Part shown: positions 18,193 through 61,397 of the stretch, in pieces
How the letters are laid out: every line of letters begins with the position of its first letter
Numbering within the stretch: position 1 is the stretch's first letter
Origin: Trichonephila clavipes
Taxonomy: Eukaryota
Direction of reading: 5' to 3'
NCBI GenBank assembly: GCA_019973935.1
Contig: BMAU01016994.1
Location: forward strand, 1,008,762 to 1,072,761
DNA: 64,000 nucleotides
The notes under the pieces: generated by a model
Database searches by the model: none
Seen by the model: only the letters and a program-made list of their open reading frames with translations
Told to the model about the DNA's origin: nothing
Program-made: the position numbers and the translations under genes

Positions 18193-18264
<72 letters not shown>

Positions 18265-27407: not shown

Positions 27408-27434
27408 ATCCTGCTGATCAGGATTTATTAATAT

Positions 27435-27905: not shown

Positions 27906-27988
27906 CTCTGTATCAACCTTAGGCTCTATGTGAACACCCTCAATTTCCCAGAATTTTTTCAGTGTTTTGTTTAAATCGTCATCAACAA

Positions 27989-28267: not shown

Positions 28268-28271
28268 TAAC

Positions 28272-30275: not shown

Positions 30276-30422
30276 TGTTTGATCACTACACCCGGGATAG
30301 CTCAATAACACACACCTCACACATGGACTGTAAAACACTCTCTATTTTTATTCACCTAAACACATAGTAACTAGAGATACACAAACAGCGCCGTCTGGCG
30401 CACGGTTTTTGCGACAAGCATG

Positions 30423-30426
<4 letters not shown>
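30276..30426 (-). repeat. BEL 5' LTR
   Basis: Direct repeat of 24354-24504. On the minus strand it is followed by TTTTGGTCCGTCGAGCCGGAG (TGG-initiated PBS-like). Confidence 0.8.

Positions 30427-30501
<75 letters not shown>
30427..30501. repeat. (TA)n microsatellite, BEL insertion site (right part)
   Basis: Dinucleotide run adjacent to the LTR. Confidence 0.95.
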
Positions 30502-30502
<1 letters not shown>

Positions 30503-30691
30503 CCAATATAATTTTTTTTTCAATATATAACTATGTACATATACATACACATATAAATTTATACATATATATACATATACACAGATATATAAACAAAAAT
30601 ATAAAAATAAACATATAGTTATATACCTAAGATAACTAAAATTAGGAAGGAGGCACATAGTATAAAGACAAACTCCTGGCCCTAGGAACCA

Positions 30692-30727
<36 letters not shown>

Positions 30728-31513
30728 CGTCATGAAATACCCAGCGAAGTGGACGGGTAACGGCTAGTAAGTAAATAAAATAGCAATTTAAAATCCCAAG
30801 AAAATTTCCTTTATTGACTTTGCATATGTCAGTGAACAGATAGGGAAAATATAGTTTCTTATCCAAATAGTAAAATGCTTCATGTGAATCCGGAATTCCT
30901 AACAGCTGAAAAAGAATCATAATGACTGCCCGTAAGTAAGATTTTTTGAAAGAGGCAACTGTAAATTGAAACGTTATCTAAAACTTATGAGAGAACAAAA
31001 AAAAAAAACATTACTCGAGAGTTTATTAGGAAAAAAAACATTGGTCTTTTAAAAGAAAAAAAAATTACTTAACATGTCGAAATTTGAGAGTTGAATTTTT
31101 AACAAATTAATATACTGTGGTGGTCAAAGCTGTAGACACTTTTGAAAATTGTTGTGTTTTTCAAGTTATGCATATAGTTTTTCAAGTATGCTTATAGAAA
31201 ATGTTACGTTGTACAAAATGCAAAGTCTGATATCATTTTAAAGAGAATTCAATACCGAATTCAATACAAAAAACAAAATTCGTTGCCACGCAAAAAGAGT
31301 TATGCTGCAAAAATTATCGATATACATTAGATACTGATGATAGCAGTGGGTTATTAGTGCTTTGTAGGGTAGTCTTGATTTTTATTACAGATTCACATCA
31401 TTGTTTCATTGAGCTGAAAGTAGTTTTAAACTTTTCCTTCGTTATTAAATGATGCCAGAAAATAATTATTGCCAACTTAAAAAGTTGGAGAATAAATAGG
31501 AAAGAACGTTTCT

Positions 31514-38609: not shown

Positions 38610-38745
38610 TCTTGGTGTGGAAGTTAGGAGAGGGAGGTACCAGCTCAAGTGTAGTCCTCCTCACTTGACCATGGTTTAAAATAATGAGGTTCATCTCCAA
38701 AAGCCCTCGTGTAGCTGAATAGCCCAACACTAATATTTATTTACT
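38610..38745 (+). mobile_element. old, diverged SINE1 3' fragment
   Basis: About 80% match to the SINE1 3' region (GGTACCAGCTCAAGTGTAGTCC...CCCTCGTGTAGCTGAATAGC). Confidence 0.55.
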
Positions 38746-41498
38746 CACTCCATATGTGTATCTGTTAATATTGATTAAAGCCGTTTTTTTTGCATTTTTG
38801 TGCTTATTTCCATAATTTTGTAATTAAATGCTGTTTTAGCCTTAAAATACATTTTGATAGCTCTATTTTGCAGTCTGATACAACATATTTAATGGCATTC
38901 ACAACAAGTTTGTGTGCATGATGTTACTACATAAATATGAATAATTCTGTATCTCAGGAAGATGAATTTGAGGAGTACTTAAAACTAGCTTTGAAATTTG
39001 GTTCAGAAATTAATTGAAGGATTCACATCATCCACAGAAAGCTATTTGAAAATAATTGAGCTTGTAATGTCTAGATATGAGAAAGAGGAATTTTTAATAT
39101 AATTATATGTTAGAGAATTGTTACTCTTGTTCTTCAAAAAGGATGGGAAATTCCAGTTGTCTAGTTATATAATAAATTAGAATCTCAATTGCATACCCTA
39201 GATTCCTTGGGAACTTAGAACTTACTGAAAAAGAACTCTCCTTAGAACAGAGTCTAATAACTATTATCATTTAACTTTTGTTCTTTTTTAGTATTAAGGT
39301 GCATATATATAACTGTAATTGATGACAGTGTAATTAACTTTTTAGCTTAATTTTAAGAGAAATTACCATTCTTCAGACTGAGAAATATTTTTTAGACAAT
39401 CATTAAAAATAAACTTTTGTTGAATTGTTTAATCAGTTATATTGATTTTTGTCATATTGACTCTTTGCAATTAGATTGTCTAAAATGTAATTCATAGGAT
39501 GTCTAAATATTTTCTGTGTGTGTGTAAATATCAGTTATTCTGAAAAATTACTTAATATTGACAAAAATAGGGTTATTGAAAAATTAAAGGGAATGTTTTC
39601 AAAAATATTAATAATTTTTTACCTCAAAATGCAGTTATGTCAACAGTATTACTTTTTTTTTCATTTTGGAAGTAAATTCATAATAAATTCGTGATATTTA
39701 TGAATTATTTTCATGCTTGTGATTTATTACCAATGATTAAAACTGCATGCCAGAGAATTTTCCAAAGACATTACATGTTATGACAACCAATTTGATATCC
39801 TAAAAATATTTTCTAAAATTTATTGAAATCCCCTGAAGATCACAGATGACATGGGGTTAGTATTTAAGTACTAAGAAGTTGATTATAGATTTCAGTTGTG
39901 TAATTGTTTTAAGGTGCATGTTGTGTCAGTTTTTGCAATTTTAGATTTTAAAACTATTTAAAAAGAACAAAAAAATTTAATTTTTCAAACTGTGATTTAT
40001 GAAATAATGCTAAAAATGATAATTTTTAAAAATTACTATTTGTTACATTTAAAGGTCAAAAACTCAGAATAATTGTTGGCTTGACAGTGATTAAAAAAGG
40101 AATGCAATTGTGACTCAAATACTTCAACTGATTCTTACTGTCTAAAAAAGTTTTTTGTCTCTGTTTTACTAAGATAGATTGTGTATTTTAGGAACATGTT
40201 GTTGGTCTAAAATTGAAGTTACTCATGTGTAAAATGATTAATAAATACAAAAGTTACATATATTCAGAGAATAGCTGTTATGTGGCTTAAAACTTAATAC
40301 ACAAATATCGTACCTTGTTGATATTTAAGTATCAAATTAACTCTTTTTTTAATTTTTGATATGTGTCTAAATTGTGATTTAGAAATGTCAATGAGAAATG
40401 TTTTCATAAGTGTACTACAGATATGAAATTTGTATATGTAACGTTTTTAACTCTAAAGAAACCTTTGACTTGTCTTTTCACTTTTATGCATTTAGCAGTT
40501 TAATGGAAGCCAGTATAGTATATATAAAGGCAATAGATTTTAATTAGTGGGTTATGGATTAACCAGAAAGCAAATTATTGTCGGGATACTGGAAAAATAG
40601 AAAGAAAAAAAATTCTCCATTTTCAAATAATTTTACCAAACTGAAATAAATCTACAAGTTAAAATCTGACCCAAACTGTAATTTTTTAGAGATAAGACAT
40701 GTGCTCTACCTATAGGAAGAGTTCATGTGTGAGGATTTTATAATATTGGATATGATATACAACATTACTACTGCTTGTAAAATAATTAATGGTTAACTTT
40801 AAAAAACATTAGGGCAGAAAATATTACTTGAAATTTTCATGAGTAATTACTTAGTTTTCAAAAGAGTGCTGTGTGAAGCAGTGTAAAAATATTAAATACT
40901 TTACAAAGCACAGATAGATGTAAAAATATTGATTAGGAGGCAGTGCCTGATTAATTAAATAAGAATAATAAATCATCCAGACATGAAATATGGAAAAATG
41001 ATGAAATTGGGCAGTAAGTATATTAAGATTTTACATAATGAACCAATCCCCATTAAAGAAGGGGAGTTATACCAAAGGAAGTGTAAGTCACACACACACA
41101 ATTCTATGTAAATGTTCTTAATTATTTAGAACTCTCAAGAAGATGGTAACTGCTCAAAAAAATCCAATCCTGGATTTAAAAGGAAATTAATCCTGGGCAA
41201 TCTAAGCACATTATTTGGCAAAAACTTTTTGAAAACACAGAATACAAATACAAAATTGTCATTTCAAGCGGTGATAAATCAAGTACTATGCTCTTCATCA
41301 ATTTCACATATATTATGATTTAATCTAAATTTTTTATCCAGGATTTTACCTTTCATTCCGAACAATCTGTTGCAAATGTTTCAGCAATAGTTTTATTTAT
41401 TGTATATATAATTTTTCTGTCATGAAATAATGTACTTTATTAACTCTAATGATCTACAATATGAATTAAATTTTACATGCATTATATTTACATAATAG

Positions 41499-41614
41499 GA
41501 GCAGTGTTCGTTTGAGGTCTTTAGGAGCTGGCCATTCTGATCTGAATATGGTTATATCAGAGCTAAAAGATCTGAGGCATGCTACAAAAGCATTTATGTC
41601 TGCACAAAATTCTG
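41499..41614 (+). CDS. host gene exon 2
   Basis: Acceptor ATAG|GAGC and donor CTG|GTAAGT. Open in one frame only (SSVRLRSLGAGHSDLNMVISELKDLRHATKAFMSAQNS). Confidence 0.6.
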
Positions 41615-43560
41615 GTAAGTAAAATTTTAGCATTGATTTTATTTAATCAATATTTTTGGTTTTGTGTAACATTTTGATGAATATCTTTACATATGTATTT
41701 CATATTTTCTTAAAATATAGATTAATTAATTCATTAGTTTATTGAATTTAATTAATAACAACTTATCATATCTTGTTAAAAGAGGGAAAATATGAATCAT
41801 TTGGGCATTGTAATTTATTATGTATTCTTTGATTGTTTTTCTTCAAATATCTCTGAAACTAATCATCATATTGAAATGGAATTTAGATTTTAGGTTATTT
41901 AGACTTGTCATCGCAATTAGTGGTCAGTAAAAAATTCCACAAAAATATTGAAATTTTACTGCATGTGTAATATTTACATAAACTAAAATTTTCCATTTTT
42001 TTTAAAATTATATAATTACTCTATAACTTTGTTATCTTTAATAGGTGCATATCACATTAATAGAAGTTTTTTGATTGTTATATTAAAAAAAATTCTAAAT
42101 TCTCGTATTAGTCATCTACCAAATATAAAAGTATACATTTAATGGTCCATGAAGTTCTCAAGGTTTGCATCCCCTGATTTAAGTAATTTTTTTACATGTA
42201 AATCTATAAGAAAATATGGTTTAAACATAATGAAAGAATTCATTTTAAATATGTGTTAATTTTATTAATAACTTAACTGTTAATATATTTAGCTTCTTTT
42301 GAATCATTAAAATTGATTTCAATTTGTCAAACTGTGGTATAAATTAAGGTCTATTCAGAATGTTGCATTTTGTGATGATTTGACAAAAGATATAAACAGA
42401 TTAAAGCATTTTTATGGAAAGTCAAATATTCTTAATCAGATCAACACTCATACATTTTATAAGTTGAGATTTATAATGTATTTGTGGTTCAATTAAAATT
42501 CATTTAAAGTTTTAAGATATGAAAAAAATTATGGTTAAAAATTTCATTTTGAAAAATATGGCAATTTAGTAAAAATTGGTGTTTATTTTCTGTCATTATG
42601 AGGGCAAAATTAGCAGTTCTAAAAATAATCATAAAATATAACATTGCTAGGGGCAGAATTTTGCAAAGGCTATTTGTATGGGGAGGTATGAATGTAGTAA
42701 CATTTAATTAAATTGGGAATATATTGGAGCAAATTTAAATGCCTAACTTTTTTTTTCTGCTTAAAGCATTTTAAATTGTATTTAGCAGTTCCCCTGTGTC
42801 ACAGGTTCATATAAGAGGAATTCATATAACCATCTGGTTGATTGCAGAGGTGTTATATAACACACTAAAAAAATTCCATACAACATGGTAGAGATAGATG
42901 TTTCAATTTTAATGAGTTTTATTAACTCCAATAAATTTTTGGCTGTTACATTAAATGTCGTTGTGCTTCTCAAATTTTCCGACCAATTTTTATAGGAGAT
43001 CATCTCAGCTTATTTCTTGTTATGATATATGTTAAACGAGTTTAAAAAAATCTTTTATTTTATACTATTTATTTCATTCAACTTACATTGGAGGGTAAGT
43101 TTTAAGAAAATAAATTTTCGAAAATTGAACCTGATTTCATCTAGAGGAAATGCATGTTTTTCTGGCACATACATAGTATAAATTAAATTGCTTAAAATCA
43201 AGTATTTTCCTAATCTCAGTGACTCGTACATAACAGATTCATATAACACACAACATATCTACCGTGTTATAGGGGGGTTACTGTACTTTTTTTTAAAACA
43301 TTGATTGACTAGCTTGGGGATTTTCTCTATTCACAAATTTTTCATTTCTTGCATGACATTGGTTTTTTCACAATACATTTAATTTCAATGAAAATAGCTG
43401 TATTAAATAAAAATTATTAACTAAATGTTTGGCACAACATTTCCCATGAAGATTTGCCTCCAAAGATTAAACCAACCATGAAAATTCTGAAAATGGTACT
43501 GGAATTAATGGATACTTGTAGTTTTTGTTAAAAAAAATACCAATGGTTTTTATTTTATAG

Positions 43561-43613
43561 CTTCTCAAGATATGGTTAAATGGGCTACCTGTGATGAAAA
43601 CAGAGCAATTCAA
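43561..43613 (+). CDS. host gene exon 3
   Basis: Polypyrimidine tract then TATAG acceptor. Donor CAA|GTAAGT. Phase-consistent (ASQDMVKWATCDENRAIQ). Confidence 0.6.
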
Positions 43614-44422
43614 GTAAGTTTTATCTATATGTCATTTTAAAAAGTAAAGGAACAAAACACTTTTTTTTAAAAAAAGAATATTTTGGAAAGAATGATTAAG
43701 TAGTCTAATTTAAAAATTTCTTTATAGTTAATCTAATTATAGATGATTTGCAATTTTAATCTTTTTTCTCAATTTCTAAGTCTTCCACCCCTTTTAAAAT
43801 TTTAAATATTTTCTTATTTCAATGTTTTAATTGTTGTATTTTTAATAATGTTATAGCGATTGTTTTAAACAGATGTATAGTAATTTGAAATATCTTTGTT
43901 ACATGTTTCCAAATCTTCAGATTTTAATTTCATCAGTCACTATTTTATGTAAAAATTGTGACAAAATACTGGGCTTGAAAATCATTTAGCATGCTTTAAA
44001 AGTTTAACAATAAAGATACTAATTAAAGTGCTTTTGCCATTTAAGGATTATTTGGAATTATTTTTTCTGTTTTCATTAGCTGTTACACAGTTTTAATATA
44101 TTAAATACACAAAACAAGCAATTAAGTTGACTTGATTGACTTGAACAATATTCAATTTTCTCATCCCAATTGCATGTATACAAACACATACTTTATTATA
44201 TAAAGAGGTAGGAACAAAAAAATTCAGAAATTGAGATAATCCATGTCAACAAAAATTTGCAGTATTTGAAATGCATTTTCTCTTCCTTTCATGATTGTTT
44301 CACTTCTGCTATCTTGATTGAATTGCATGCACAAATGTCTTTGTTCTATGATGTAAAAAATATGGATTTTTTTTTCAAAAGCAACACTGTAACACTAAAT
44401 TTTGTCAGCATTTGGGAAAACT

Positions 44423-44540
44423 TCGGTGCCAGCTCAGGTGTCGTCCACGTCACTTGACCATGGTTCAAAATTACGTGGTCCGTCGCCAAAAGCCCTCGTG
44501 TAGCTGAACAGTGCGACGTTAATATTCAATCAATCAATCA
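44423..44540 (+). mobile_element. SINE1 5'-truncated copy (SINE-a), left boundary of the tandem duplication
   Basis: SINE1 3' ~120 bp with (TCAA)n tail. Flanked on both sides by TTGGGAAAACTTC (44410-44422 and 44541-44553). Confidence 0.8.
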
Positions 44541-45454
44541 ATTGGGAAAACTTCATTTGAAACTTATGCTAACAAAATTATAGTAATTCTACAATGTTGA
44601 TTTCATGGGTGTATACATGATATCAGCATTTTAAAATCTGATGATCCAGTGCAGGTAAGTTCTCTGACAGACCTGCAGTTTTACTAATTGAGCTAAAAAT
44701 TTATTTCTGGAGGCAGAACAGTGGTCAAATGCCATTATCTTGACAGCTTAGAACAATTCAGGAAGTGCATTCATCATAAATTATCTCGGATGTTGCAAAA
44801 TGGACAATTGTGTATCATCTGAGACCAATATACAGGCGCACATTGGTCTCAAAGTGTCATACAGTTTTTTGCCGAATTTGAAAGTGAATGCTTTCACATT
44901 TTGCCTATTTACAGGATTTAGCCCTGTGTTAGTTTTACTTATTTTAAGAATGAAACTTAAATATCTGCTAGGGTATCATTTTTTGTTTTTATATCATATA
45001 ACAACAGCTTTGCGAGAGGTTTTATGGATAGTTGCAAAAGATGGCTTTTGTATTGCTTCCATAAGTTGTACCACTTCTGTCAAAGGTGTATTGTTGCCCT
45101 AAAGGAATATTTTGAAGGTTGTTGTGTATTAATATTTTTAGATATTAGAGTTTTGAAAATTTTATGCCTTCAACTTTAGGATCCTGCTTCATAGGATAAT
45201 TTTAGAAACAGAGTTTTTATACCTTTGGCAGTTGTTAAGCTTAGAAAAATTGAATACTTTTGCATTTTACCTATATGGTAATATTAATAATATTATTTAA
45301 TCATAACTTTATTAACATTAGTTTAATATCTTAGGAATTGCAACTTGATTTTAAGTATATTGAGCCAGTCTTTTTTCAATTCCCACTATTAGCTCACACT
45401 CTCTATATATTTATTTATCTTGTTCAAATTTTCAATCATTAATAAAATACATTT

Positions 45455-45900
45455 TAAAGTGCGCAGTTGAGCTGAAATTTTATATACATGATTATTTTGG
45501 ATGACAATACAGTAATTTAATTATAAATGATAAAAATTAATTGATTAAAACTAATTCAAAGAATTACAAATACAGCAACGTTGGCATAATTTTTTGCGAC
45601 TTAGCAACCCTTTTGGCGACTTGTGTCAAAACTTGAAAAAGTTTTTTTCTCACATTTTAAAGCACTCATTTGAGCTGAAATTTTCTATACTCTATTTTTT
45701 TGGGTGACAATTGATAATTTAATTATAATTAATTAAAATTAATTTACTGAAACAATTATATTTATAGATACAGCCACGTTGGTTTCATTTTTATCGACTT
45801 GTGTTAAAATTTTAGCAGATTTTTTTTTTCTCAAGTTCTAAAGCATTCTTTTGAACTGAAATTTATACACAATTGTTTTGGATGACAAATTAATTGCCAC
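45455..45900 (+). repeat. ~190-bp tandem repeat, about 2.5 units (duplicated again at 47790-48235)
   Basis: Units begin AAAGYRCKCAKTTGAGCTGAAATTT. A related fragment with GTCGCCAA motifs lies at 10080-10180. Confidence 0.6.
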
Positions 45901-46601
45901 TTAACATTGTGATTCTGTCATATGTATATACATATTTATATTAATTGTAACTATTTAATAATAAGTAGCTAAAAAATAAATTTTTTGTTTTTTGATCTAA
46001 GCAGGAATTGACTTTTTATATTACTTGTTTTTAAATTTTGTTTACCTTATTTTCTCTGAATCATAAATAAAATGAGGATAAGAAAAAATTTTTCAAGCTA
46101 GTGTAGGATCTTGATTTGGAAGTGTTTGTAATTATTGATAAAACTGTTATGTATGCTTAAATATGCAATTTCTTAAAAACATTTGCATTACTTTTTGGCT
46201 TTGTAAATGGTTTTGTGATCTTAATTTAAATTATATTGGAAAAAATACCAAATGTATGAAAGATTTTACATCATTTAGTGTTTAACTTTTCAATCATAAT
46301 AGGCACTATAATTTTGAAAAATGTCCATTATTTTAAATTATTGTTATTGTAAGATAAAATTAAAATAATAAATCTACCTTATTTGTTACTCTTGTATATG
46401 ACATAATTTTCTGAAATCAAGATTTGTACCAAGTTTTCATAAAAACTTTTTCAATATTTAAGATTACATGGAGGTTATACCATAGACCGGTGGTCTTCAA
46501 AGTTTTTCAACTCATGAAACCCCTAGAACAAGAATGTGTTTTCATGGAAACCCTATAACTAGAGAGTATTTTCATGGGACCCTACTCCCCACACACACAG
46601 T

Positions 46602-46876
46602 GGCTGCGGTAGCCGAGTGGTATAGGTATCAGACCGTGGCTTGCCTTGTCACGAGTTCGAGCCCAGTACCACTAAAGACCCGCCGTGTAGGGCAGCGATG
46701 CACGTTAAATCTGTCGAGAGCTGAAATGTCCTCCCGTTGGTGTGGTAGTTAGGAGAGGGGGTGCCAGCTCAGGTGTCGTCCACGTCACTTGACCATGGTT
46801 CAAAATTACGTGGTCCGTCGCCAAAAGCCCTCGTGTAGCTGAACAGTGCGACGTTAATATTCAATCAATCAATCAA
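46602..46876 (+). mobile_element. SINE1 full-length copy (recombinant junction copy)
   Basis: 5' flank CCCCACACACACAGT. 3' flank TTGGGAAAACTTC. So the 5' flank comes from the downstream SINE and the 3' flank from the upstream SINE. Confidence 0.8.
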
Positions 46877-48936
46877 TTGGGAAAACTTCATTTGAAACTT
46901 ATGCTAACAAAATTATAGTAATTCTACAATGTTGATTTCATGGGTGTATACATGATATCAGCATTTTAAAATCTGATGATCCAGTGCAGGTAAGTTCTCT
47001 GACAGACCTGCAGTTTTACTAATTGAGCTAAAAATTTATTTCTGGAGGCAGAACAGTGGTCAAATGCCATTATCTTGACAGCTTAGAACAATTCAGGAAG
47101 TGCATTCATCATAAATTATCTCGGATGTTGCAAAATGGACAATTGTGTATCATCTGAGACCAATATACAGGCGCACATTGGTCTCAAAGTGTCATACAGT
47201 TTTTTGCCGAATTTGAAAGTGAATGCTTTCACATTTTGCCTATTTACAGGATTTAGCCCTGTGTTAGTTTTACTTATTTTAAGAATGAAACTTAAATATC
47301 TGCTAGGGTATCATTTTTTGTTTTTATATCATATAACAACAGCTTTGCGAGAGGTTTTATGGATAGTTGCAAAAGATGGCTTTTGTATTGCTTCCATAAG
47401 TTGTACCACTTCTGTCAAAGGTGTATTGTTGCCCTAAAGGAATATTTTGAAGGTTGTTGTGTATTAATATTTTTAGATATTAGAGTTTTGAAAATTTTAT
47501 GCCTTCAACTTTAGGATCCTGCTTCATAGGATAATTTTAGAAACAGAGTTTTTATACCTTTGACAGTTGTTAAGCTTAGAAAAATTGAATACTTTTGCAT
47601 TTTACCTATATGGTAATATTAATAATATTATTTAATCATAACTTTATTAACATTAGTTTAATATCTTAGGAATTGCAACTTGATTTTAAGTATATTGAGC
47701 CAGTCTTTTTTCAATTCCCACTATTAGCTCACACTCTCTATATATTTATTTATCTTGTTCAAATTTTCAATCATTAATAAAATACATTTTAAAGTGCACA
47801 GTTGAGCTGAAATTTTATATACATGATTATTTTGGATGACAATACAGTAATTTAATTATAAATGATAAAAATTAATTGATTAAAACTAATTCAAAGAATT
47901 ACAAATACAGCAACATTGGCATAATTTTTTGCGACTTAGCAACCCTTTTGGCGACTTGTGTCAAAACTTGAAAAAGTTTTTTTCTCACATTTTAAAGCAC
48001 TCATTTGAGCTGAAATTTTCTATACTCTATTTTTTTGGGTGACAATTGATAATTTAATTATAATTAATTAAAATTAATTTACTGAAACAATTATATTTAT
48101 AGATACAGCCACGTTGGTTTCATTTTTATCGACTTGTGTTAAAATTTTAGCAGATTTTTTTTTTCTCAAGTTCTAAAGCATTCTTTTGAACTGAAATTTA
48201 TACACAATTGTTTTGGATGACAAATTAATTGCCACTTAACATTGTGATTCTGTCATATGTATATACATATTTATATTAATTGTAACTATTTAATAATAAG
48301 TAGCTAAAAAATAAATTTTTTGTTTTTTGATCTAAGCAGGAATTGACTTTTTATATTACTTGTTTTTAAATTTTGTTTACCTTATTTTCTCTGAATCATA
48401 AATAAAATGAGGATAAGAAAAAAATTTTCAAGCTAGTGTAGGATCTTGATTTGGAAGTGTTTGTAATTATTGATAAAACTGTTATGTATGCTTAAATATG
48501 CAATTTCTTAAAAACATTTGCATTACTTTTTGGCTTTGTAAATGGTTTTGTGATCTTAATTTAAATTATATTGGAAAAAATACCAAATGTATGAAAGATT
48601 TTACATCATTTAGTGTTTAACTTTTCAATCATAATAGGCACTATAATTTTGAAAAATGTCCATTATTTTAAATTATTGTTATTGTAAGATAAAATTAAAA
48701 TAATAAATCTACCTTATTTGTTACTCTTGTATATGACATAATTTTCTGAAATCAAGATTTGTACCAAGTTTTCATAAAAACTTTTTCAATATTTAAGATT
48801 ACATGGAGGTTATACCATAGACCGGTGGTCTTCAAAGTTTTTCAACTCATGAAACCCCTAGAACAAGAATGTGTTTTCATGGAAACCCTATAACTAGAGA
48901 GTATTTTCATGGGACCCTACTCCCCACACACACAGT

Positions 48937-49211
48937 GGCTGCGGTAGCCGAGTGGTATAGGTATCAGACCGTGGCTTGCCTTGTCACGAGTTCGAGCCCA
49001 GTACCACTAAAGACCCGCCGTGTAGGGCAGCGATGCACGTTAAATCTGTCGAGAGCTGAAATGTCCTCCCGTTGGTGTGGTAGTTAGGAGAGGGGGTGCC
49101 AGCTCAGGTGTCGTCCACGTCACTTGACCATGGTTCAAAATTACGTGGTCCGTCGCCAAAAGCCCTCGTGTAGCTGAACAGTGCGACGTTAATATTCAAT
49201 CAATCAATCAA
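48937..49211 (+). mobile_element. SINE1 full-length copy (SINE-b)
   Basis: Flanked by CCCCACACACACA on both sides (target-site duplication). Confidence 0.8.
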
Positions 49212-51420
49212 ACCCCACACACACACTTAGAAGAATATTTCTTAAAATAATATTTAAAGTATATCAACAATAGATCAATATAAAGGAAATTGAAAAAAGT
49301 ATTGCATTTATTAAAACATTTTTAATCTACATTTAATAATCTACTCATTAATAATATTAATCTGTGATCCAAGTGTTACCTACCCATGCATTATGCTTAG
49401 TAACTGGGATGTGCTTGCATTTTTTTCATTTATACTGTCAAAGTCTAGGTCTATTGAAAATAACTGCAATAACATTATATATTTGGAGTTTCATTTGTTT
49501 CTATGCTTTTTGTTTGTAGTCAATCATGTTGCAAAATACTTTTCACTTATATATTGCAATGACAGTAAAATGTTTATGGCTATGTGAGAAATACTGTGTA
49601 TTTTGCATGAGAGAGAGAATTTGCAACATAAAATTTAGGATCTGTTCTTGCTTAAATTTAGATTTTTAACATCAAATTTGTTGTTATATTGTAGGTGTTT
49701 TTCCACAAATATAAAAAGGTGTATTTTCGTTTAGAAAACTATTAGTTTTGCAAAACAATACTAACGAGTATAAAATTATCTCGTAGAATTCAGAATAGTA
49801 AGCAATAAAATATTCACAATCTAGTAAGTAATGTATGTATAAAGATAAAAAGTTTCAATATTCTTTTATTATATTATAATAAAAGTTAAAAAAGTATTGC
49901 AAAATAAAGTTATGTATGAATAAAATTTTCAGTTTCTTAATGACAGGGATGAACTTTAAATTCGTGTGAGTGTATAAACATATTAAAGAACGTGAATCTA
50001 TTTTGCATACTCTTTTATAAGTTTCTTTTTGATTTTTTTTTATTGTGGAACCTCTGGGTATGCCTCATGGAACCCCAGGGTTATGTCTGCGATATATAAT
50101 AAGGCTTCACAACCTGTGGTATATGTATGTCCAGGGATACATGAAATGATCTCAGGAGGTGCATGGGAAAAAAAGGTGTAATGGTCAACATTGGTGGATA
50201 GACTGAACATAAGAGAAAATATCTGTTGTTATTCTATATATCTTAAATGGATCTTGATAGATGAGGAGTTGTGACATTATAATTCTTATTTTTCATATGT
50301 AATACAGGTAATACACTTTCATTCATATGAAATCAGGATTTCCTGTTAAAACGAACCACTAATACTTTTTTTTTACTTGTGTATGGACATCATTTCATGA
50401 ATATTTTTTTGTGGTGAAATAACTCGTAAATTACATAAGTAAAGTAAAAATTAAACATATTTGTCTTTTAATTATCGTATCACAGAATAACCAATTGTAT
50501 ATTCTTGTAGAATGTACTGTAATTTATTTATTGGTTGTACTGTAATGGACTTCACTAAAGTTGGTAATACTGCTTTGTCTGTATCTGTATTATTTTTGTC
50601 ATAATAGTTTTTAATAAGTTTAGCTTGCTCTTGAAGTAATAGTGCCGTAGTGTTATATATTTTAAATAGTTTAACTAAAAGTGTGTAATTACTAATGTAC
50701 ATTTATTACTAAATGGTGAAAATAAAAATATATTTGTATTGCAGAATTATTACTGTATCTAATTTTGGTAATTGTTCATGGCAGTCAATGATTCTATGTT
50801 GAGAGGTACATGAGTAAAACAAGTTGAGAAATGCTATTATAGTGTATAGTTCTTTATAATTCACACATTATATTTAAGTTATCAGTTGGAACAAATTTAT
50901 TTGAAATGTCATATAGTAATCAGAATTTATAATTATTTTAATGTAGATATTTGTTTTTAGTAGTACAGAAAAGTTTTCTGTATATTGACTTGTATTTTTA
51001 TACTAATTTTAACTTAATATTTTAGTTTCACTTTATTATGTATATAATCTGGTATGCATTATCATTGCTGGATTTTGATTTTTGGAAATTGAATGAGAAT
51101 TAAGAATTTTTCCTTTCTATTACTGTAAAAAGAATGATTTTCGGTCTTCAAAATGTTTGCAAGAAATGTAACTAATAAATTATTTTTGAATGTAAAATTA
51201 AATTTTTTAAATTGTGTAATTGAATAGTTCATGATCTTACTGTGTCACCATTGATAGTCAATGTAATGAATAGATGTCGTATATGAATTATCTAAGTGTA
51301 CATATTTTTTCTCCACATATTCAGTGTAATATTTTTAATGTCTATTTTAGTAAATTATTTTAAATTTAATTTAGATTTGATGTGATAGCTTATCATATTT
51401 ATGATGAATTAAAAAAAAAG

Positions 51421-51693
51421 AGGGAAGCCTAGTGGCTGAGTGGTAAGTGTATCGCACTTCCACACCACAGGTCTGGGGTTCAAACCCCGAGCTGGGCAAG
51501 GTTGACTCAGCCTTTCATCCCTTCAGTAGGCTGATAAATGAGTGCCAAGCTTGCTTGGGAACTTAACACTGTGAGTTTCGCACCTGACCGGAACATCTGC
51601 TCATGCACCTCAGAGCCCAAGGTCGTGTATATTGAGTTGGTCACAGTAGGCCTTGGCCCTCATGGGCTGTCGTGCCACTGAGTTAAGTTAAAA
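51421..51693 (+). mobile_element. SINE2 copy
   Basis: GCCTAGTGGCTGAGTGGTAAG...GGTTCAAACCCC tRNA-like head plus conserved body. Preceded by an A-rich stretch. Confidence 0.65.
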
Positions 51694-52102
51694 AAAGAAG
51701 TATTGAAATAAGATATTAATTAAAGAGAGAGGGGTTATTTTGTATTATAATTTTTTTTATCTTATGGGTGATAATATGTGTGATTAATTACCGTAAAATC
51801 CGAGGTATAGTGCACAATGGTGTATAACGCACATCCTCTTTTTTACGAAGAAACCTGAAGTATATGTGTGCATTGATCTTATATTTTGAAGTCATTTATT
51901 CGAGGTATTACCCTAAGCATTAGCAAAAATAGTATACTTCTAGATGAAAATAGTTTCACTTCATCATGTCATTTCTTTTGAATAAGCAGTATTTTGTTAT
52001 ATGTCGAATTTTGAATACTTGTAACTATTTTACACGCTTTAAAATGTTCTGTGTTTTCTATTAACATATTTGACAGTTTGATTTTTTCTCATAAATTTGC
52101 AG

Positions 52103-52166
52103 GACATTATGAGTCAGTTGGGTGAATTAAATAACATGTGGACTGATGTACAAAAAGACTTTATTG
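52103..52166 (+). CDS. host gene exon 4
   Basis: Acceptor TTTGCAG|GAC and donor TTG|GTATGT (DIMSQLGELNNMWTDVQKDFI). Confidence 0.6.
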
Positions 52167-55067
52167 GTATGTTTTTATTTTACAATTTCTTTTGAAATAT
52201 ATTGCAGTACTTTTTTAATTGTGAGAATATTGAATGTCAGAAAATCTTATATATTGTGTAATTTAGTATTTCTTTTTAAAAAAAATTGTCAAAATTTTAC
52301 ATTGGAATTTGCATTACAACAATTCTAACCTTTTTCTTTATAGTCTATATATACTATGTTTTGTAAAATTTTTTTACAAATTTACTAAATGTTTAATTTG
52401 ACTCTTTGTCAATTTTTCTGTGCAGTTTCTATTTTGATTTAGAATAAGTAATCCTCTGTCTTCACTCAAGTGACATTGCTAGCATGGAAAAATTTCTTAA
52501 ACAATATTTATTTTTAAAATTTAATCTTGTTTGATAAGTGTTTGAGACATGTTTTTAAGTAAATTACTATTGTAATATAAATTTTCTTTTTACAATTTTA
52601 TTTTTGCATGGAAGCTTGGACCTTAATTTAATTTCAAGTAACTTGTAAACTTAATCTTACTTTTAATTTATTGATTCAATAAATAAATGCTCAACAATAT
52701 TAGGGCACTTACTAGCTTGCATAACTAGCTTCTGAATCCCATCTTCTTTGAAGTCTGCCACCTGGTTTATTATTTATTTCAGCTTGATTGTTTTGATGTT
52801 GTTGCATCACTGATGCTAAGGTGCTGTTTCAAGTGCATGAACAAAATTAGTGTCATATGTCATCATTTGTTGTCACTTTGAGAAAAAATTTCCACAATCA
52901 AAACAATTTGTTTAAAAGCTTGTACACATGAGAACAGTTAAAGCATAACCAAAATGACTCATTTTGTGCAATTCATTTAGCCTTTTTAGAATCCATCTTT
53001 AGCATAAATGTTCTGTCATAATTTCAGAAAAAATACTTCTTGCATCTAGATAGATAGTTTAATCATGAGATAATTATGAAATTACTCTCTATGATCAAAA
53101 ATACCTGGGCACTTCTTGAAATAGTAGATTAATAGTATAAAAGAAGTTGGTTGAATTGACAATCAGGCTTTCACTGCTAGAAATGTACAATGGAAGGAAA
53201 ATGTGAGTGAAGGGATTTTGAACATGGTTAAGTGATCGGTTGTCACTGGTGTGGAAAGTGTTTAAGACATTGAAGAGATTTTGCCCTTCTACAATGATGT
53301 TATGAAGTGAAGTGACTGAGCAAAAATACAATCTGATGTATTGTGCTGCAAGTGAAATTTGTAGGAGTGGCATAATGGTTCTGGAATATTTTTTTATAGT
53401 TTGACATTGGTCCTTTGGTTGCTGTACAAGAACTCTTAACCCTTTATCTACTGCATTAGGATTTACTGCAGTTTTTTTCATGCAATACTTTTTTTTTAAT
53501 CACTAAATTGAAAATTAAGCAATATACATAAACAAAATATTCCACTTTGGGAAGTAGAATCCATTACAGCTAATTAATTAATTAAAGATAATCAACTGTA
53601 AAATTAATCATGTACACTTTTCACTTAAAATAAAGAGTCAAATCGTTTTCTAAGGTCTTCATTAACATTCAAAAGAAATAAGACACTTATCTTTTGACAT
53701 TAAGTATTTTTTCCGAAACAAAAATGACAATCATCGCAATCCACTGAAAATGTCAGCTGAAAATGCAATTTCTGCTCTAAAATACTCATCATAGAACCCA
53801 TGCTGCCATATATGTTGGAAGAGTGGATTTCAAAGAATATTCGTGCTAAGTATCGTCAGAGTATTCGTAAAAATAGTTATTCTATGTTTTAAAGTGAGTG
53901 GTACTTATATAAGTACCTTCAGCAAATAATGGCTTAATAGGTTTTGAAATAACATAGCATCTTTTTTTCGCATGCCTTGTCTACTCATTCAAGATTTAAA
54001 ATCCCTGTTTGATAAGATCATTATTAAAAGAACATTCAGGGTTGAGATGGAAGTCCATCTAGTCATTTTGGGAAATTCCATGCTATTTGCATTATGGCAA
54101 CAGTTAGGATTAGGTCTATTCCTGTCTCAACAAAACCATGTCCCCCCTTGTTCATGCTGCATGGCTTGTGCAGATGTGATTTACTGACATGCATGTTCAG
54201 GAATAAGACTAATCTATCCAAAACCTAGACCTAAATCCCATAAAGTGCCTGTGGGATGGCTGCAAGGTAATACCATGATATCCCAATTCAGTAGCAGAGC
54301 TGACCATTGTTCTGCCAGATTTGTATGCAATTCCTGCTACAATCTTAAAAAAAACTAGTGGATAAGTCTTCTCTAAAGATTGATATCACTTGGAGGTTGC
54401 TTGCAAAAGAGGGCCCATTCTCATGATCTTTTTATGTATCTATGGGTAACACTAAACACAAGTGTCCAGTTACTTTTGCTCATACAATATATATAGTGTA
54501 TACTACTTCACTAGGTCATCATTAATGATAAACTGTCCCCTACTTTGTTCTTCAGCCTACTCATTTGTTTGACTTGTCGCTCTGTAACCTATTACCTTAC
54601 AATTCCACTGTTGTCTCTATTTGTTTCATTAATCTGCCTATGATTTGTAGATCATTCATGTTTCTTCTATAAAATCAGTGACATCAGGTATATCACTATT
54701 GGGGAAAATACCAATAGTCTGAAGCTTTATAGGTGCTCATAAACATCAACACAAATAGTGTCAATATATGAAGATATTTAGTAAATCATAGTGCTTCAAT
54801 GGTTCTATTTCAAAATGGTGTTCAACATGCCTCATATTATTTTTTAGTAAAGAAATTTGTGAACTAATTAATTTGTTTTAGCGGATCGTATATTTTTTCT
54901 ATGTATGGTATGCATGCAACTCGTGACACTCATGTACTAAAAATTATGATTTTTTTTATCAAGAGTATTTCCTGTTTTGAAAAATAATAAAATGCATTAT
55001 AAAATTTGTATAACTTACATTAAAAGTTATGTAACTGAGAAGGATTATTATTTCACCATTTTTATAG

Positions 55068-55147
55068 AGCACCTGAAAACTTTCAAGAATCATTTTGAGT
55101 TGATTTTGGAAGGTGAAAAGCAATTCGACATTGCACAGAATCAATTG
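55068..55147 (+). CDS. host gene exon 5
   Basis: Acceptor TTTTATAG|AGC and donor TTG|GTTTGT. Restores the frame between exons 4 and 6 (EHLKTFKNHFELILEGEKQFDIAQNQL). Confidence 0.6.
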
Positions 55148-55505
55148 GTTTGTATTTAATCATATTTTACTTTTATATTATGATGAACTTGAAAACTACG
55201 TAGTAGTAATGGTTTTTTGTAATTTTTACTATTGAAATATTCCTTAGTAACAAATGAATGTAATGACATCCATCATATAATATTAAAAGAAGTTTCTAAG
55301 TTTTGCAAATTATATGTCATTTGGGGTTTATATACATTTAAATATTGAAATATTTGAGTTATTTTATTCATGCTGCAAATATTTTTTAAGTTAAAAATAT
55401 TGTTGTAATTACTGAATTTTAAAGCAGGATTAAATAGTAATAAACATGAAGGCTTAGCTAAAAAATTATAGGCAAAAATTTGTATTTTGTATTTTAAATT
55501 TTTAG

Positions 55506-55562
55506 GCAAGCTGTGAGCTCAATGAACAAAGGATACGTAAAGAATTGAAAAGAGCTTCAAAG
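55506..55562 (+). CDS. host gene exon 6
   Basis: Acceptor TTTTTAG|GCA and donor AAG|GTATGG (ASCELNEQRIRKELKRASK). Confidence 0.6.
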
Positions 55563-57067
55563 GTATGGAAATTTTGTATCACAGTAGTTCGTTAATTATA
55601 TAATTAGATAATGATTAGTAATAAAACACATGTAATATATTTATCAAGTTGTAATTTTTATATATATATACACCTTGTTTTAGAGAATTGAGTATTATAA
55701 ACTGTATTTTAAATTTTTTTTTAAAAGAACGGCTTTTAGATACACTTTTATGGATGCAATTAAGACCAGTTAAATGTTAAATATTGTTCAAGTTAAGAGG
55801 ACACAGTACGATTCAATTGACAAAAATTGGTCAAAAACTCAAATCTAACTTTTTTAGCCTAAATTATTCTCTATATACTTTTTTATAACCTCACAAAATT
55901 TGAAAGCTCTAAACTTAAAAAATGCAGAAGTATAACTTTTACGTTCATTTTTATTCCCATCCCTATGGCAAATCAAAACTTTAAAGTTACTTATCTCAGA
56001 AAGATAAAATAACTGGTTTATCTTCATTTAAAATGCTAAGGATTTTTTTCTATTGTGCCTATTGCTTTGAATTTTTTTTAACCTATTGCTAATAGAACAT
56101 GTAACAAAAGTTAGTATGCATTTTTGAATCCAAGCAATACTTATTTTTTTAAAAAAATAATTGAACTCTGAATTAATACATTTTTAAGGAATTTTCAATA
56201 AGCATTCATAAAAAGAAGTATTGTACAATACCAATCATGTTATCGCAAAATCTATACCAACTTTTGTTACACATAGTTAGATGTACTTGTAAATCACATT
56301 TCATGTGTTAATGAAAGTTTTGTAGGAGGAGTAGCATTTAAAAATCACTTCACAAATTTTTTCTTAAAAAATTAAATGAAAATGAAATTATGAAATGAGT
56401 TATGAAATTTTGAGCACAAAATCTGTTTCACATCATACATGAGACAACCAAAAAATTTTGAAAATCCTTTAATTAAAAATTTTTTGTGTAAATTGTACCA
56501 TGTCCCCTTAAAGAAGATACTACTTTACATTAATCATTTCAAATTATTTGCATCTTAATATTATTTAAAGTTAATTATTATTAAAGGTCAAGTAATACTG
56601 TATATTATTCTCCATGAAGTTATTTTTTTAAAGGTATGCATTTTAGAGTATTATAAATTAATAACTAAACACATTAGTCATCTACAATATAGTAAGGCAA
56701 CTTGTCAACCTGGCTTAAATACAGTTCTAACTATAACTGTATTAAATATTATTATTATAATTGGTAATTATATTGTGTGTGTGTTCTTAGTTTAAAGTAT
56801 GTAAATTGGGTAGTTGTTGAAGATGGGGAAAAAGAGCTGTAATCACATTAGTTATTGATTAGCGGTATCATACTTGTTTTATTTTGAATTTGAGATACCT
56901 TTAGTTAATTAGTAAAAAGTGAAGTAAAAATAACAAAGTAAAATAAAAATAATAAATCATTGCAATTATAGTAATATTATTTGTTATGTATTTTCAGTTA
57001 TTTTGTATTGATAAAAACAATTTTTTTTTAACATGTTACAATTTTTTGCCTTTACAATTATTTTTAG

Positions 57068-57149
57068 AAAGCAACCGAGGAAGAAATAAATAACTTGGAA
57101 ATAAAGTTATCTCAAGCTGAAAGAGCTAAATATTTAGCTCAATTGGAAG
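57068..57149 (+). CDS. host gene exon 7
   Basis: Acceptor TTTTTAG|AAA and donor GAAG|GTGTG (KATEEEINNLEIKLSQAERAKYLAQLE). Confidence 0.6.
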
Positions 57150-58355
57150 GTGTGTTTCATAAATGTCTTTGTGTTTTAATTATATTTATATCATTCTATT
57201 CATATTTAAGGTGCCAACATTTTGAATGTTTGCGTATTTTTTTTTAATAATATATATATACTGCCAACTGCAAGGTATCTCATTGTAAGTGTTACAGGTT
57301 TTGATTGATTGCAATTTGTCTCAAAATAAGTTTATAGCTTTTAATATAGGAATTATTTTAAAGGATGGGTTTTTTTAATATAAATATCACTTTTATTATC
57401 AAAATAATCACTTTGATAATTTGATTGTAATATTTTTACATATTGTGTGTGTATTACAAAATTATGATGTTTTTATTGTTGTGCCAGTGTTTGATGAGCT
57501 TTGAAGCAAGAATTGAAGTAGAGAGATAACTAACTGGCTTTTGGGGGCATACTGGACAAAAATGTTTCACTGTATCAATTTTGCTTTATACTCATGTGAC
57601 ATAGTTTTTCAGGCTTTGGTATTTTTATATGTGGCATTTACTGCCGTGTCTTAACAAAAATATTTCTTTGTATCTGAAAAATTTCATTGAAAGGCGAAAA
57701 AAATGTCCAGAGCTATTTCATTAGTAGTATTCAGCGCAGAAATTTTATTCAGTGATACCTGCTACAAGTTTTTTTTTTATTTTCATTTTCAAAAGATATT
57801 TCAATAATATATCTTGTGACATATTATTAGATTTTGTGCAATTCCATGTTTTCTTTGAAATAAAATCTTGGCACACAAGGCAAGACGATCTAAATTTGCC
57901 TGGAATTGAATGGGTTAATTAAGTTCTCATTTTAAATTGTATGATAGGTTTTTTTTTTGTTTTGTTTTTTCAATAATTTTTTTTATTCCCTATATATATA
58001 TATAATTTATGGAAACTATTTGTAATGCATTTAGAATTCTGATTCTAATTTCTTAAAATAAATTATAAAACATTAGGACTTTTGTAGAACTAGAACTGTT
58101 ATTTTTCAAGAAAAGTGATATTTTATCAACTTTTAAAATGTAATATTTGTGAAATAATGAACATTAAGCATTTTAAATTATAATTAAAATATTGATTATT
58201 AAAATAACTTAGATTAGTTCCTTGTTTCTAAAATTTTTAACTGAGTTTAATTTTTTAAATAATTTCTGTTATTAATTTCAAAATTTAGTTTGATTTTTAT
58301 TTTAAACAATGTGTTTGTATTAATAAACATTTCTAATTTACTGTTTTAATATCAG

Positions 58356-58480
58356 TTGTAGAATTGTCTCATAAAAATGAAGCTATTAAGGTTGTTCGAC
58401 TGAAGGAAGGTTTGCTAAAACTCTCTGAAGCTTATGTGGAGCTTGCAAATAAATGTGCAATAATTTTTGAAGCACAGCGA
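58356..58480 (+). CDS. host gene exon 8
   Basis: Acceptor ATCAG|TTG and donor CGA|GTAAGT (VVELSHKNEAIKVVRLKEGLLKLSEAYVELANKCAIIFEAQR). Confidence 0.6.
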
Positions 58481-59597
58481 GTAAGTTACAAATCACAAAT
58501 TTACTGTTACAAAAATAATTTTATGATAATTTACATTTATGTGTAAATTACTCTTAAATTAGTTAATATTTTATATTTTTATGATAGATAATTATTTGAT
58601 AATTATTTACAGCATTAAAAGAAACATAAGAACTTGTAAGACTTGAAATATTCTTCATAAATTCAAATATGAAAGAATGTTTTTCTTCTCATTAATTTTT
58701 TTGTTGACTAATTAGAATTAAATGTGGTTTACATATACAACATAATTTATAATAAAATTAAAGAAATATATTTTTTGAAAATTAAAAATATTTAAAAAAA
58801 AGTTCAAAGCTAATCTGTTGTTGTTTTACTCAAAATTTCCCTCAAAAATCACTGAAAAAGAAACAGTATTGTATTCATATTAATTCATGACATTTTAGTC
58901 CATTCTATATTCATTGTCTTTTATTGAATAAAATTTGTGAAATAGGTATAAATTAAGTGAATATTCTATTTCATATTTAATGCTTAAATATTATCCCTAA
59001 GCAGCTTTAAAAATAAACTTGACATTGATTTGTGGCTATATGGTATTTATTTAAATCTCATTGAAATTCCATTGTGTGATTTGTATTTATCATCTCCTAT
59101 TCTAAAATACAAATTAAAATATTGTAAAATGCATCCTGAAGAATACAAAGATAATAGTGTTACTGGTTATAAAACGAACAAACAAAAAAATCTCAGGGAA
59201 TGACTCAGTAAATTAGTATACAAGTAACCGAGTAAATAAAAATTTAAAAATATTTTATACTTTTTTTTTTTTGTAATTTAGTTACATTAACCTACATATA
59301 TATTTTTTGAAGATCATTATCCCAAATCCACCACTTGTTAAGAATATAATCTTTGAAATAATCATTAAATATAACTGTTTATTCCTTATATTTATCTTGG
59401 TAAATTTCTCAAAATTCATGTATTAATTTATTTTTAATTTAAACTTTGCGATGTGTATTTACACATGTGTAACTATTCATAATCTTCATACCTCATGTTT
59501 ATTAATAATTTATGTTTCTATTAAAAGATTGTGCTTTTTTTTTTCAAAAATAATTCTTGTAGCTATTAATTTTTGTAATGGAATATTTATTTTGCAG

Positions 59598-59658
59598 GAA
59601 GTATCTCATTATTTACCAGATGTTCACAGTCGAGATATGAATGAATTAAAGTATACTG
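59598..59658 (+). CDS. host gene exon 9
   Basis: Acceptor TTTTGCAG|GAA and donor CTG|GTGAGT (EVSHYLPDVHSRDMNELKYT). Confidence 0.6.
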
Positions 59659-60608
59659 GTGAGTATACTTTTATAAACTATGAAAGAAAATTATGGGATT
59701 GTTCAGATTCTCCAAAATAAATGAAATTGTTCACAAATATATGAGGAACATAGCTTAAGAAAGGTTTGACAGTACAACAAACCTTAATAAATTATGAAGT
59801 TTCCCAGGGAAATATCTTCATAATCTCAAATATCAATAACCAGTGATATTACAGAAATATTTATTATTACTGTGGATATTGAATCAGTCTCTTACATACT
59901 GAGGAGTAACTGCAGTAATCAAGGTCATCTTTTTTTTCTTCTTGTGTAGTAGGGCTGACCTACCTTAATCTGTCAAGGCTCAAAATCCTCACATTGGAAT
60001 GGTATGTTAGTTTGAAGAATAAACTGCCATTTCGGGTCTCATTTGACTGGGGTTTAGAATCGTAAGGTCTAATTTCAATAGCCTTTGTGTTGCTTCAGAA
60101 TGCAACATTAATATAATCAAATTAGAATATAATCTTTTAAAATACTCAAGCTTCTTTTATTTTGCTTCTTGCCATGTTTGTATTATTTTAAGTGTATGTT
60201 TAATCTTAGTTGCATCTCTCTCTCTTTTTTTAAAACCAGTCTTGCAGATTCAAATATTAGAGATAAGATTTTTGTTATGAAAGCAGTTCTCAACCCTTTA
60301 ATGGATTGTTTGCCTGTTAAAAATTTACTGAAGACAATAGAGTTAAAACGAGATAGAGAGAGAGAAGGAAAACTGTAGTATTTTACAGCATATGACACAA
60401 ATAAGTTCAATTTAATTTGCTATCCATACTTTTATTAATAAAATTTGATTAATGTTATTCTTCATTAGTTCTAGTATTCTGTTTTAGACCTTTTTTTTTT
60501 TAAAAAAAAATTAAGGATTTGTTTGAGTGGTAAATTTAAATATTAGTGTGTATAATAAAATTGGATGGTTAAAGGTATTAATTTTTTAAATATTACATTT
60601 ATTCTTAG

Positions 60609-60707
60609 GTTCTGGTGCTTGTAAACAAGCAGTTGCCAAAGCACGAGATAGAGTGCAACTGTATAAACGCCACAATTATCGCTTAGTACCTTCAAGCTCA
60701 ATCATAG
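60609..60707 (+). CDS. host gene exon 10
   Basis: Acceptor TTCTTAG|GTT and donor TAG|GTATAA (GSGACKQAVAKARDRVQLYKRHNYRLVPSSSII). Confidence 0.6.
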
Positions 60708-61098
60708 GTATAATTAGTTTTTAATATAGTTTTGAATATGAATTTTTTGTATGTGCTTTTAGTTTTTTTAAATTCTGTTTAAAAATTGAACTGAGTAAAT
60801 TTTCAATGAATTCAAACTAAAGAAAAAATTTAAAATGTTTTTAGTTGATTCACTTTTTTTTTAATTATATAAAAAGTCAAAAATATGTCCCTTATTATCT
60901 CCATATAACTTTTTAAATTTTAAAAAGAACTTGTTATCAGTATATTTAAGGCAGATTTATCCTTGACATTTTTTGCTAAAAGAATAAAATCTTAAAAACG
61001 TGTTTTTTCTCCCAATTAACCATTAACAGGTAGGGTAAGTTTGAGATTAATATTTAAACTAAATTTATTCCTCAAAACTGTTTTACTGTATTTACCAG

Positions 61099-61397
61099 AA
61101 GATCCTCCACCCCCTTATACACCAGGCTTCTACAATCCGGCTACTGGGCGGCCATATAATGAAGCCACTGATAACTGCCTGAACAGTCAGCCTCCTGTGA
61201 TTCAACGACAAAGAGCTGTTGCCACTGTTACCATCTCACCATCATGCCCACCTTATCCATCACCCTCACCTCCTCATTATAACATCTCAACTTCCATTGC
61301 TCCTGGTGCCAGGCAATCCAATGAAGTATATCGCAGTGGCAGTGGAAATAACTATGAAGATGAACTCTCTGGAGCTATGGGAGCTTCACGCATTTGA
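61099..61397 (+). CDS. host gene terminal coding exon; proline-rich tail with PPPY (WW-domain-binding type) motif; stop TGA
   Basis: Acceptor TATTTACCAG|AAG. ORF EDPPPPYTPGFYNPATGRPY...SPSCPPYPSPSPPHY...ends at 61397. AATAAA-like signals in the AT-rich 3' flank. Confidence 0.65.

Follow-up and report, generated by a model that had tools for sequence, protein, structure and literature searches.

We analyzed a 64,000-nucleotide stretch of the genome of the spider Trichonephila clavipes (assembly GCA_019973935.1, contig BMAU01016994.1, positions 1,008,762 to 1,072,761 of the forward strand), hereafter the window, in whose own numbering all positions are given. From 41.5 kb onward the window carries a plus-strand host gene (41499-61397), one of whose introns holds two head-to-tail copies of a 2335-bp unit bounded by three copies of a short interspersed nuclear element (SINE). 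We conclude that this duplication is very probably real and SINE-homology mediated, that is, the germ-line product of an unequal exchange between two SINE copies in direct orientation.

A self-comparison of the window at a constant 2335-bp offset gave a continuous match in which 44425-46876 pairs with 46760-49211, and the region 44425-49211 comprises 2.05 head-to-tail copies of the unit. Beyond these limits identity at the same offset drops at once, giving sharp boundaries, and the boundaries coincide with the limits of the homology between SINEs: position 44425 is the first base of the upstream copy and 49211 the last base of the tail of the downstream copy. A separate repeat search returned three 117-nt copies, 100% identical to one another, at 44425, 46760, and 49095, a spacing of 2335 bp. 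Aligned end to end, the units differ by four substitutions and no insertion or deletion (identity, 99.83%). The differences are 45228 G/A, 45463 G/A, 45580 G/A, and 46089 T/A (partner positions 47563, 47798, 47915, and 48424), and two of the G/A differences are in CpG context. The first-pass annotation of this DNA, made from the letters alone, had described a 2 x 2335-bp tandem duplication of two identical 2.06-kb units. The period and the presence of two units stand, and with four mismatches and no indel the units are not substantially different. They are near-identical rather than identical, however, the unique DNA between the flanking repeats measures 2032 bp, and the periodicity begins at 44425 rather than at 44423. 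No other near-identical tandem duplicates were found in the window.

The upstream SINE (copy A, 44425-44541, plus strand) is 5'-truncated, consists of the 3'-terminal 117 nt of the element including its (TCAA)n tail, and aligns at 100% to positions 163-279 of the full-length copy. It lies between two copies of a 13-bp target site duplication (TSD1, TTGGGAAAACTTC), at 44412-44424 and 44542-44554. With its complete tail, its 13-bp TSD, and its 5' truncation, A is a genuine independent insertion, and two other copies in the window (4460-4612 and 38612-38750) have the same truncated-insertion structure. The downstream SINE (copy B, 48935-49211, plus strand) is full length (GT plus ~275 nt) and is flanked by a different target site duplication (TSD2, CCCCACACACACA), at 48922-48934 and, after one extra A at 49212, at 49213-49225. 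A and B belong to the same family, are both on the plus strand and therefore in direct orientation, and bound the duplicated segment; they would be the upstream and downstream recombination substrates, respectively.

Between them lies the most informative part of the array, a chimeric SINE at the junction of the two units (copy M, 46600-46876, plus strand). M comprises the extra bases GT and a full-length body, whose head comes from B and whose final 117 nt are common to A and B; like B, it is ~277 nt long. Its 5' flank is TSD2 (46587-46599), and its 3' flank is a third copy of TSD1 (46877-46889), inherited from the 3' flank of A. The flank pairs are TSD1/TSD1 for A, TSD2/TSD2 for B, and TSD2 on the 5' side with TSD1 on the 3' side for M, which has no matching pair of its own, its 5' TSD being that of the downstream parent and its 3' TSD that of the upstream one. 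Each of the six TSD copies is perfect. Over both strands of the window, each 13-mer occurs exactly three times (TSD1 at 44412, 44542, and 46877; TSD2 at 46587, 48922, and 49213), that is, only at the predicted junctions. Over 279 nt, M and B are 100% identical, and M has every head variant that sets B apart from the other members of the family, namely deletions of 5 bp and 1 bp and three substitutions. In the fixed-offset comparison the M junction is in register, with no bases inserted or deleted. The structure of the array, the exchange of TSDs, and this junction are read directly from the bases, as is the intronic location described below. The first-pass annotation had assigned TSD1 to the upstream copy and TSD2 to the downstream copy and had called the middle copy chimeric, all of which is borne out, as is its count of three SINE copies bounding the units; the one exception is that the upstream copy is a 117-nt 3' fragment in place of an entire SINE. 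Because A comprises just these 3'-terminal 117 nt, the homology for an exchange was 117 bp and not the whole element.

The unique segment between the SINEs, U, is 2032 bp long, intronic, and on the plus strand, with its first copy at 44555-46586 and its second at 46890-48921 (4 differences, 99.80% identity over 2032 bp). Apart from its duplicate it is single copy in the window and is therefore not itself a transposon. Open reading frames (ORFs) in and around the unit had no Pfam match; for the longest ORF of the unit (44752-45099), 5.8 billion proteins yielded no homologue and public assemblies no exact match; Rfam found no RNA family in U; and nothing indicated a coding exon within the duplicated unit. 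A perfect splice donor consensus (CAG/GTAAGT) does occur at 44652, with its duplicate at 46987, ~100 bp into each unit. We considered it as an exon end and rejected it, given that ~0.5 such 9-mers are expected by chance in the window and that homologue residues are continuous across the intron. U also contains an AT-rich tandem array of ~3 x 203 bp (45449-45900, with its duplicate at 47784-48235), the repeats of which are ~72-83% identical, and a 30-bp x 2.5 minisatellite (TCATGGAAACCCTAGAACAAGAAAGTATTT; 46512-46584, with its duplicate at 48847-48919) that adjoins the insertion site of SINE B on the upstream side.

The whole array is held by an intron of 8489 bp (43614-52102, plus strand, phase 0), bounded by a donor GT at 43614 and an acceptor AG at 52101-52102; without the extra unit, the intron would measure 6154 bp. 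The upstream exon (43561-43613) encodes ..SQDMVKWATCDENRAIQ, corresponding to homologue residues ~49-66, and ends ..ENRAIQ/gtaagt. The downstream exon (52103-52166) encodes DIMSQLGELNNMWTDVQKDFI.., corresponding to residues ~65-88, and starts cag/GACATTATG (DIMSQLGEL..; DIMSQLGELNNMWTDVQKDF..). In the homologues, the residues across the intron are contiguous (..ENRAIQDALTQVGEL..). Because the flanking exons encode consecutive homologue residues and the interval is bounded by canonical GT/AG, the array is wholly intronic, in agreement with the earlier placement inside a host gene intron, and because no coding residue is missing across the intron, the duplicated unit contains no exon of the host gene. 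The SINEs are in sense orientation relative to that gene.

The host gene itself is a conserved, uncharacterised coiled-coil/BAR-like gene. Three candidate exons, when concatenated, matched an Araneus ventricosus hypothetical protein (90% identity) and an Ixodes protein, and an exhaustive HMMER search returned full-length relatives of 300-400 aa that are uncharacterised arthropod proteins (e.g., Centruroides XP_023240841). One Homalodisca relative is named "F-BAR domain-containing," and the Pfam match to Pil1 (eisosome) is weak and subthreshold. A tblastn search of the window with the homologues gave colinear plus-strand exons at 41499-41614, 43561-43613, 52103-52166, ~55061-55150, ~55509-55562, 57068-57150, 58355-58480, 59599-59659, ~60602-60691, and 61100-61397 (with the stop codon). 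The Araneus ventricosus contig with the orthologous last exon aligns only to 61095-63014 (last exon and 3' untranslated region; 74%) and has no copy of the SINE, and for these reasons it is unusable as an outgroup for the duplication. In the host protein (~300-400 aa) there is a PPPPY motif, as well as a C-terminal motif, ..LSGAMGA.., that is conserved. The homologue models now available are poor: AVEN_195258 of Araneus ventricosus is a fragment of 136 aa, ISCW015663 of Ixodes has an internal duplication, and Centruroides XP_023240841, in which a Sina RING segment replaces residues ~50-115, looks chimeric.

With the 279-nt middle copy as the query, blastn against the window and multiple alignment of the copies revealed four SINE copies beyond A, M, and B, each with its own TSD. 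They lie at 4460-4612 (plus strand, 5'-truncated; TSD GGGGACTGGGTTT), 9284-9562 (minus strand; TSD CCATTCAAG[G/A]ATA), 16001-16282 (plus strand; TSD TTCATTAAGCAGG), and 38612-38750 (plus strand, 5'-truncated, 82% identical to the query; TSD CCATATGTGTATCT), two of the four being 5'-truncated. Independent insertions thus number six in 64 kb, each with a different TSD of 13-14 bp. A full-length element is ~280 nt, and full-length copies are ~94% identical to the query (~6% difference). Truncation at the 5' end with an intact tail and TSD occurs in half of the insertions (3/6), and the tail of every copy is (TCAA)n or (ATTC)n. Within the family the conserved part is the 3' 117 nt, where the body of A is matched exactly by the copies at 4460 and 16001, so perfect identity between A and B before the event is plausible. 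The array shows that this spider SINE family is sufficiently young and uniform to drive ectopic exchange. The copies at 4460-4612 and 16001-16282, both on the plus strand, form another direct pair, 11.5 kb apart and identical in their 3' regions, and are potential exchange substrates; no rearrangement between these two copies was seen.

Structure and behavior are our grounds for calling the element a SINE. Its head contains a box A (TAGCCGAGTGG) that matches the consensus perfectly and, at the expected spacing from it, a box B-like motif (AGTTCGAGCCC) that matches 10 of 11 consensus positions. No tRNA was found in the SINE by ARAGORN at default settings or by Rfam at E<=10, and Rfam at gathering thresholds found no tRNA or other RNA family in the whole window; a tRNA-Thr-like fold was returned for one SINE copy only, and only at a lowered ARAGORN threshold. 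Since Rfam and ARAGORN gave no tRNA, the label "tRNA-derived" is unproven, with the box motifs as its sole basis. In stability, the fold of the SINE RNA does not exceed that of shuffled sequence (z = -0.95). Regions 3' of two LINE-like reverse transcriptase (RT) ORFs in the window (LINE, long interspersed nuclear element) had no similarity to the SINE tail, and the partner LINE may lie elsewhere in the genome. A full-text search of 8 million papers with five SINE subsequences gave no match.

From these features we infer the order of events and the pairing step. A 5'-truncated SINE, A (117 nt), would have inserted at TTGGGAAAACTTC via target-primed reverse transcription, and full-length B, oriented like A, would then have inserted 2032 bp farther downstream, at CCCCACACACACA; before insertion, the empty sites would read ...GCATTTGGGAAAACTTCATTTG... 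and ...CTACTCCCCACACACACACTTAG.... Next, B on one chromatid or homologue would have paired with A on the other, and an exchange within the 117 bp, which are 100% identical, would have joined the segment comprising flank, A, U, and B head to the segment comprising A tail, U, B, and flank. The exchange may have been a crossover (non-allelic homologous recombination [NAHR] or unequal sister chromatid exchange) or a template switch at a replication fork. The product would be A - U - chimeric M - U - B, with 2335 bp added to the intron and no coding sequence added. Reciprocally, the exchange would produce a deletion of 2335 bp that leaves a single 117-nt fragment with TSD1 on its 5' side and TSD2 on its 3' side, and this predicted allele was not observed. 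Three events (two insertions and one exchange) account for every junction, and every alternative that we constructed needs more. An origin of the second unit by retrotransposition or 3' transduction was rejected: the segment between TSD1 copies would start with a SINE 3' fragment, which presupposes A.

Several points weigh against this account. The 117-bp homology is shorter than the ~300-500 bp that is quoted, for mammalian systems, as the least that allows efficient homologous recombination (PMC6071635), which weakens the strict crossover version. Since A, M, and B do not differ over the 117 nt that they share, the exchange point is unmappable and can be placed no more finely than 46760-46876. 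The four differences between units could equally be heterozygous single-nucleotide polymorphisms (SNPs) folded into a false duplication. Neither a single-unit allele nor an orthologous empty site was retrieved from the Araneus contig or from public protein and contig indices, and the case is built on one assembled sequence.

Within the confidence that we place in a SINE-mediated exchange, the larger share goes to a crossover, which we consider somewhat probable, and the smaller to replicative template switching or break-induced replication of the kind described as break-induced replication mediated by microhomology (MMBIR) or fork stalling and template switching (FoSTeS), a sub-variant that we regard as possible at best. 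A fork that collapsed within or after B would have re-primed on the identical 117 nt of A in the sister template, and the product would look the same as the observed array. The homology tract is only 117 bp, and the literature on recombination between Alu elements holds that short substrates are more often used in this way than by classical NAHR (PMC6071635; PMC9675761). On the other hand, 117 bp at 100% identity is far beyond microhomology, and the junction is in register without the templated insertions or extra breakpoints that MMBIR often leaves; a junction this clean slightly favors simple homologous exchange. Because the homology is only 117 bp and both routes yield the same product, the two are inseparable by sequence. 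The first-pass annotation had read the middle copy as the junction expected from NAHR between the two SINEs; the predicted chimeric junction is there, and it would fit a template switch as well as a crossover.

The main rival, and the sole one that would make the feature unreal, is an assembly artefact. Here the true haplotype would be A - U - B, and a cycle in the assembly graph (from the 117-bp repeat through U and the SINE head back to the repeat) would have been traversed twice, laying two heterozygous haplotypes of U in tandem. The topology of the array is indeed that of a graph loop closed by a repeat, the units differ by only four SNP-like substitutions and no indels (0.17%, within the range of heterozygosity), and independent sequence of the locus was not found in public protein or contig indices. 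Nevertheless, the assembly runs for 64 kb without Ns through nested long terminal repeat (LTR) elements, LINEs, and long microsatellites, which suggests long reads that would span the 4.8-kb array, and the window holds no other tandem repeat that resembles a false duplication. An artefact would also need reads joining the SINE head to TSD1 across 117 bp, a false link that reads longer than ~150 bp would contradict. We therefore consider this explanation improbable.

We regard it as more improbable still that the duplication is old and that ongoing gene conversion between the tandem copies has kept the units near-identical. Tandem 2.3-kb copies are good substrates for conversion, only four differences are left, and nothing polarises the four changes. 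A young event is nevertheless the simpler explanation, considering that dispersed SINE copies differ by ~6% and LTR pairs in the window by ~2%, whereas the units differ by 0.17% and all TSD copies are perfect. Conversion would have had to homogenize the full 2.3 kb without leaving a mosaic of conversion tracts, and no observation requires it. Finally, a non-homologous segmental duplication followed by independent SINE insertions at three sites has the abundance of the SINE in its favor (six insertions in 64 kb) and nothing else, and it is effectively refuted by the TSD pattern, as M has one half of each neighbor's TSD instead of its own, equals B at 100% over 279 nt including the B-private indels, and lies in a duplication whose boundaries match the limits of SINE homology to the base.

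If the exchange occurred as proposed, its age can be approximated from the divergence of the units, K = 0.0017 (4 differences in 2335 bp; Poisson 95% interval, roughly 0.0005-0.0044). If an arthropod-like mutation rate of ~3e-9 per site per generation is assumed for this species, K/2u would give ~3e5 generations, an order of magnitude at best and one that gene conversion would bias downward. The event had been called recent in the first-pass annotation; the 0.17% divergence of the units and the six perfect TSD copies agree with this, with the caveat that the estimate comes from four differences and that conversion could keep the value low.

The wider window is AT-rich (31.5% G+C) and contains no N in its 64 kb. 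Its first 31 kb, which lie either upstream of the host gene or in the gene's 5' part, are a dense nest of retroelements, all of the following being on the minus strand: LINE-like RT ORFs at 1-1401, 7022-9105, and 18867-20733; a gypsy-like RT/RNase H region at 14860-15639, whose candidate LTRs lie at 13804 and 22402 (98%); and, at 24964-29972, a BEL/Pao element that has Peptidase_A17 and integrase and whose candidate LTRs lie at 24354 and 30276 (98%). Long microsatellite tracts of the (TA)n/(TATA..) type at 18108-18325 and 30351-30763 are gap-free in the assembly. Long inverted repeats of ~1.1 kb, in several blocks, pair 2527-3617 with 4917-6041 (94-98% complementary, ~1.3 kb between them), and the interval contains a minus-strand ORF (3981-4337) and the 5'-truncated SINE at 4460-4612. 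The region 2527-6041 resembles a foldback element or a DNA transposon that bears long terminal inverted repeats and into which the SINE inserted later.

The two-unit array might also be a segregating structural polymorphism at the first step in the birth of a tandem array seeded by a transposable element (TE); we think this improbable. If it were so, further unequal exchange would be far likelier with the 2.3-kb homology between units than it was with the original 117-bp substrate, and the conserved BAR-like gene would contain an intronic locus of variable copy number, in which the added sense SINE could possibly affect splicing. The duplication leaves the coding sequence unaltered and opens no long-standing question. 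As a natural TE-mediated duplication it is unusually legible, with both parental TSDs perfect, one parent truncated, and the junction unambiguous, and it could be of use in teaching, or as a positive control for callers of structural variants or TE-mediated rearrangements in arthropod genomes. Should the array prove to be an assembly artefact, it would flag a local assembly error.

Three known systems invite comparison. In TE-seeded tandem repeats and the birth of satellites, a tandem unit bounded by TEs can expand further by unequal exchange. The spider locus resembles such systems in having a TE-bounded unit in more than one tandem copy, which now offers 2.3 kb of homology for exchange; it differs in that the array has only two units, with no further amplification and no copies found elsewhere in the window.

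Alu recombination-mediated deletions are the reciprocal class (reportedly described, e.g., by Sen et al. 2006, with a human-chimpanzee comparison by Han et al. 2007 that PMC6071635 cites). They follow the same substrate logic and leave the same diagnostic, a chimeric element with two non-matching flanking TSDs. In those deletions, however, the DNA between the elements is removed, whereas the spider array is the product of a gain.

The closest parallel is with the human rearrangements mediated by pairs of Alu elements (AAMR) or by TEs in general (TEMR), in which direct elements of the same family recombine and leave a chimeric but complete element at the junction (PMC6071635; PMC9675761). Duplications are the rarer, gain class among them (33/493 TEMRs; PMC9675761), and the median size of Alu TEMRs is ~1.1-1.3 kb (PMC6071635; PMC9675761). 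The spider array shares with these human duplications its two direct SINEs of one family, the head-to-tail duplication, the in-register chimera that restores a complete SINE, a size (2.3 kb) within the Alu TEMR range, and an intragenic, intronic location. There are also differences. The spider SINE, with its A and B boxes and (TCAA)n tail, is unrelated to the 7SL-derived Alu; the tract that its substrates share is 100% identical, against a typical divergence of 10-20% between paired Alus; and the chimera is asymmetric, because one of the substrates is a 117-nt 5'-truncated fragment. The mechanism is already known, and the locus is a new spider instance of it rather than a new mechanism. By analogy with the human cases, we propose that the array is the arthropod counterpart of Alu/Alu-mediated duplications.

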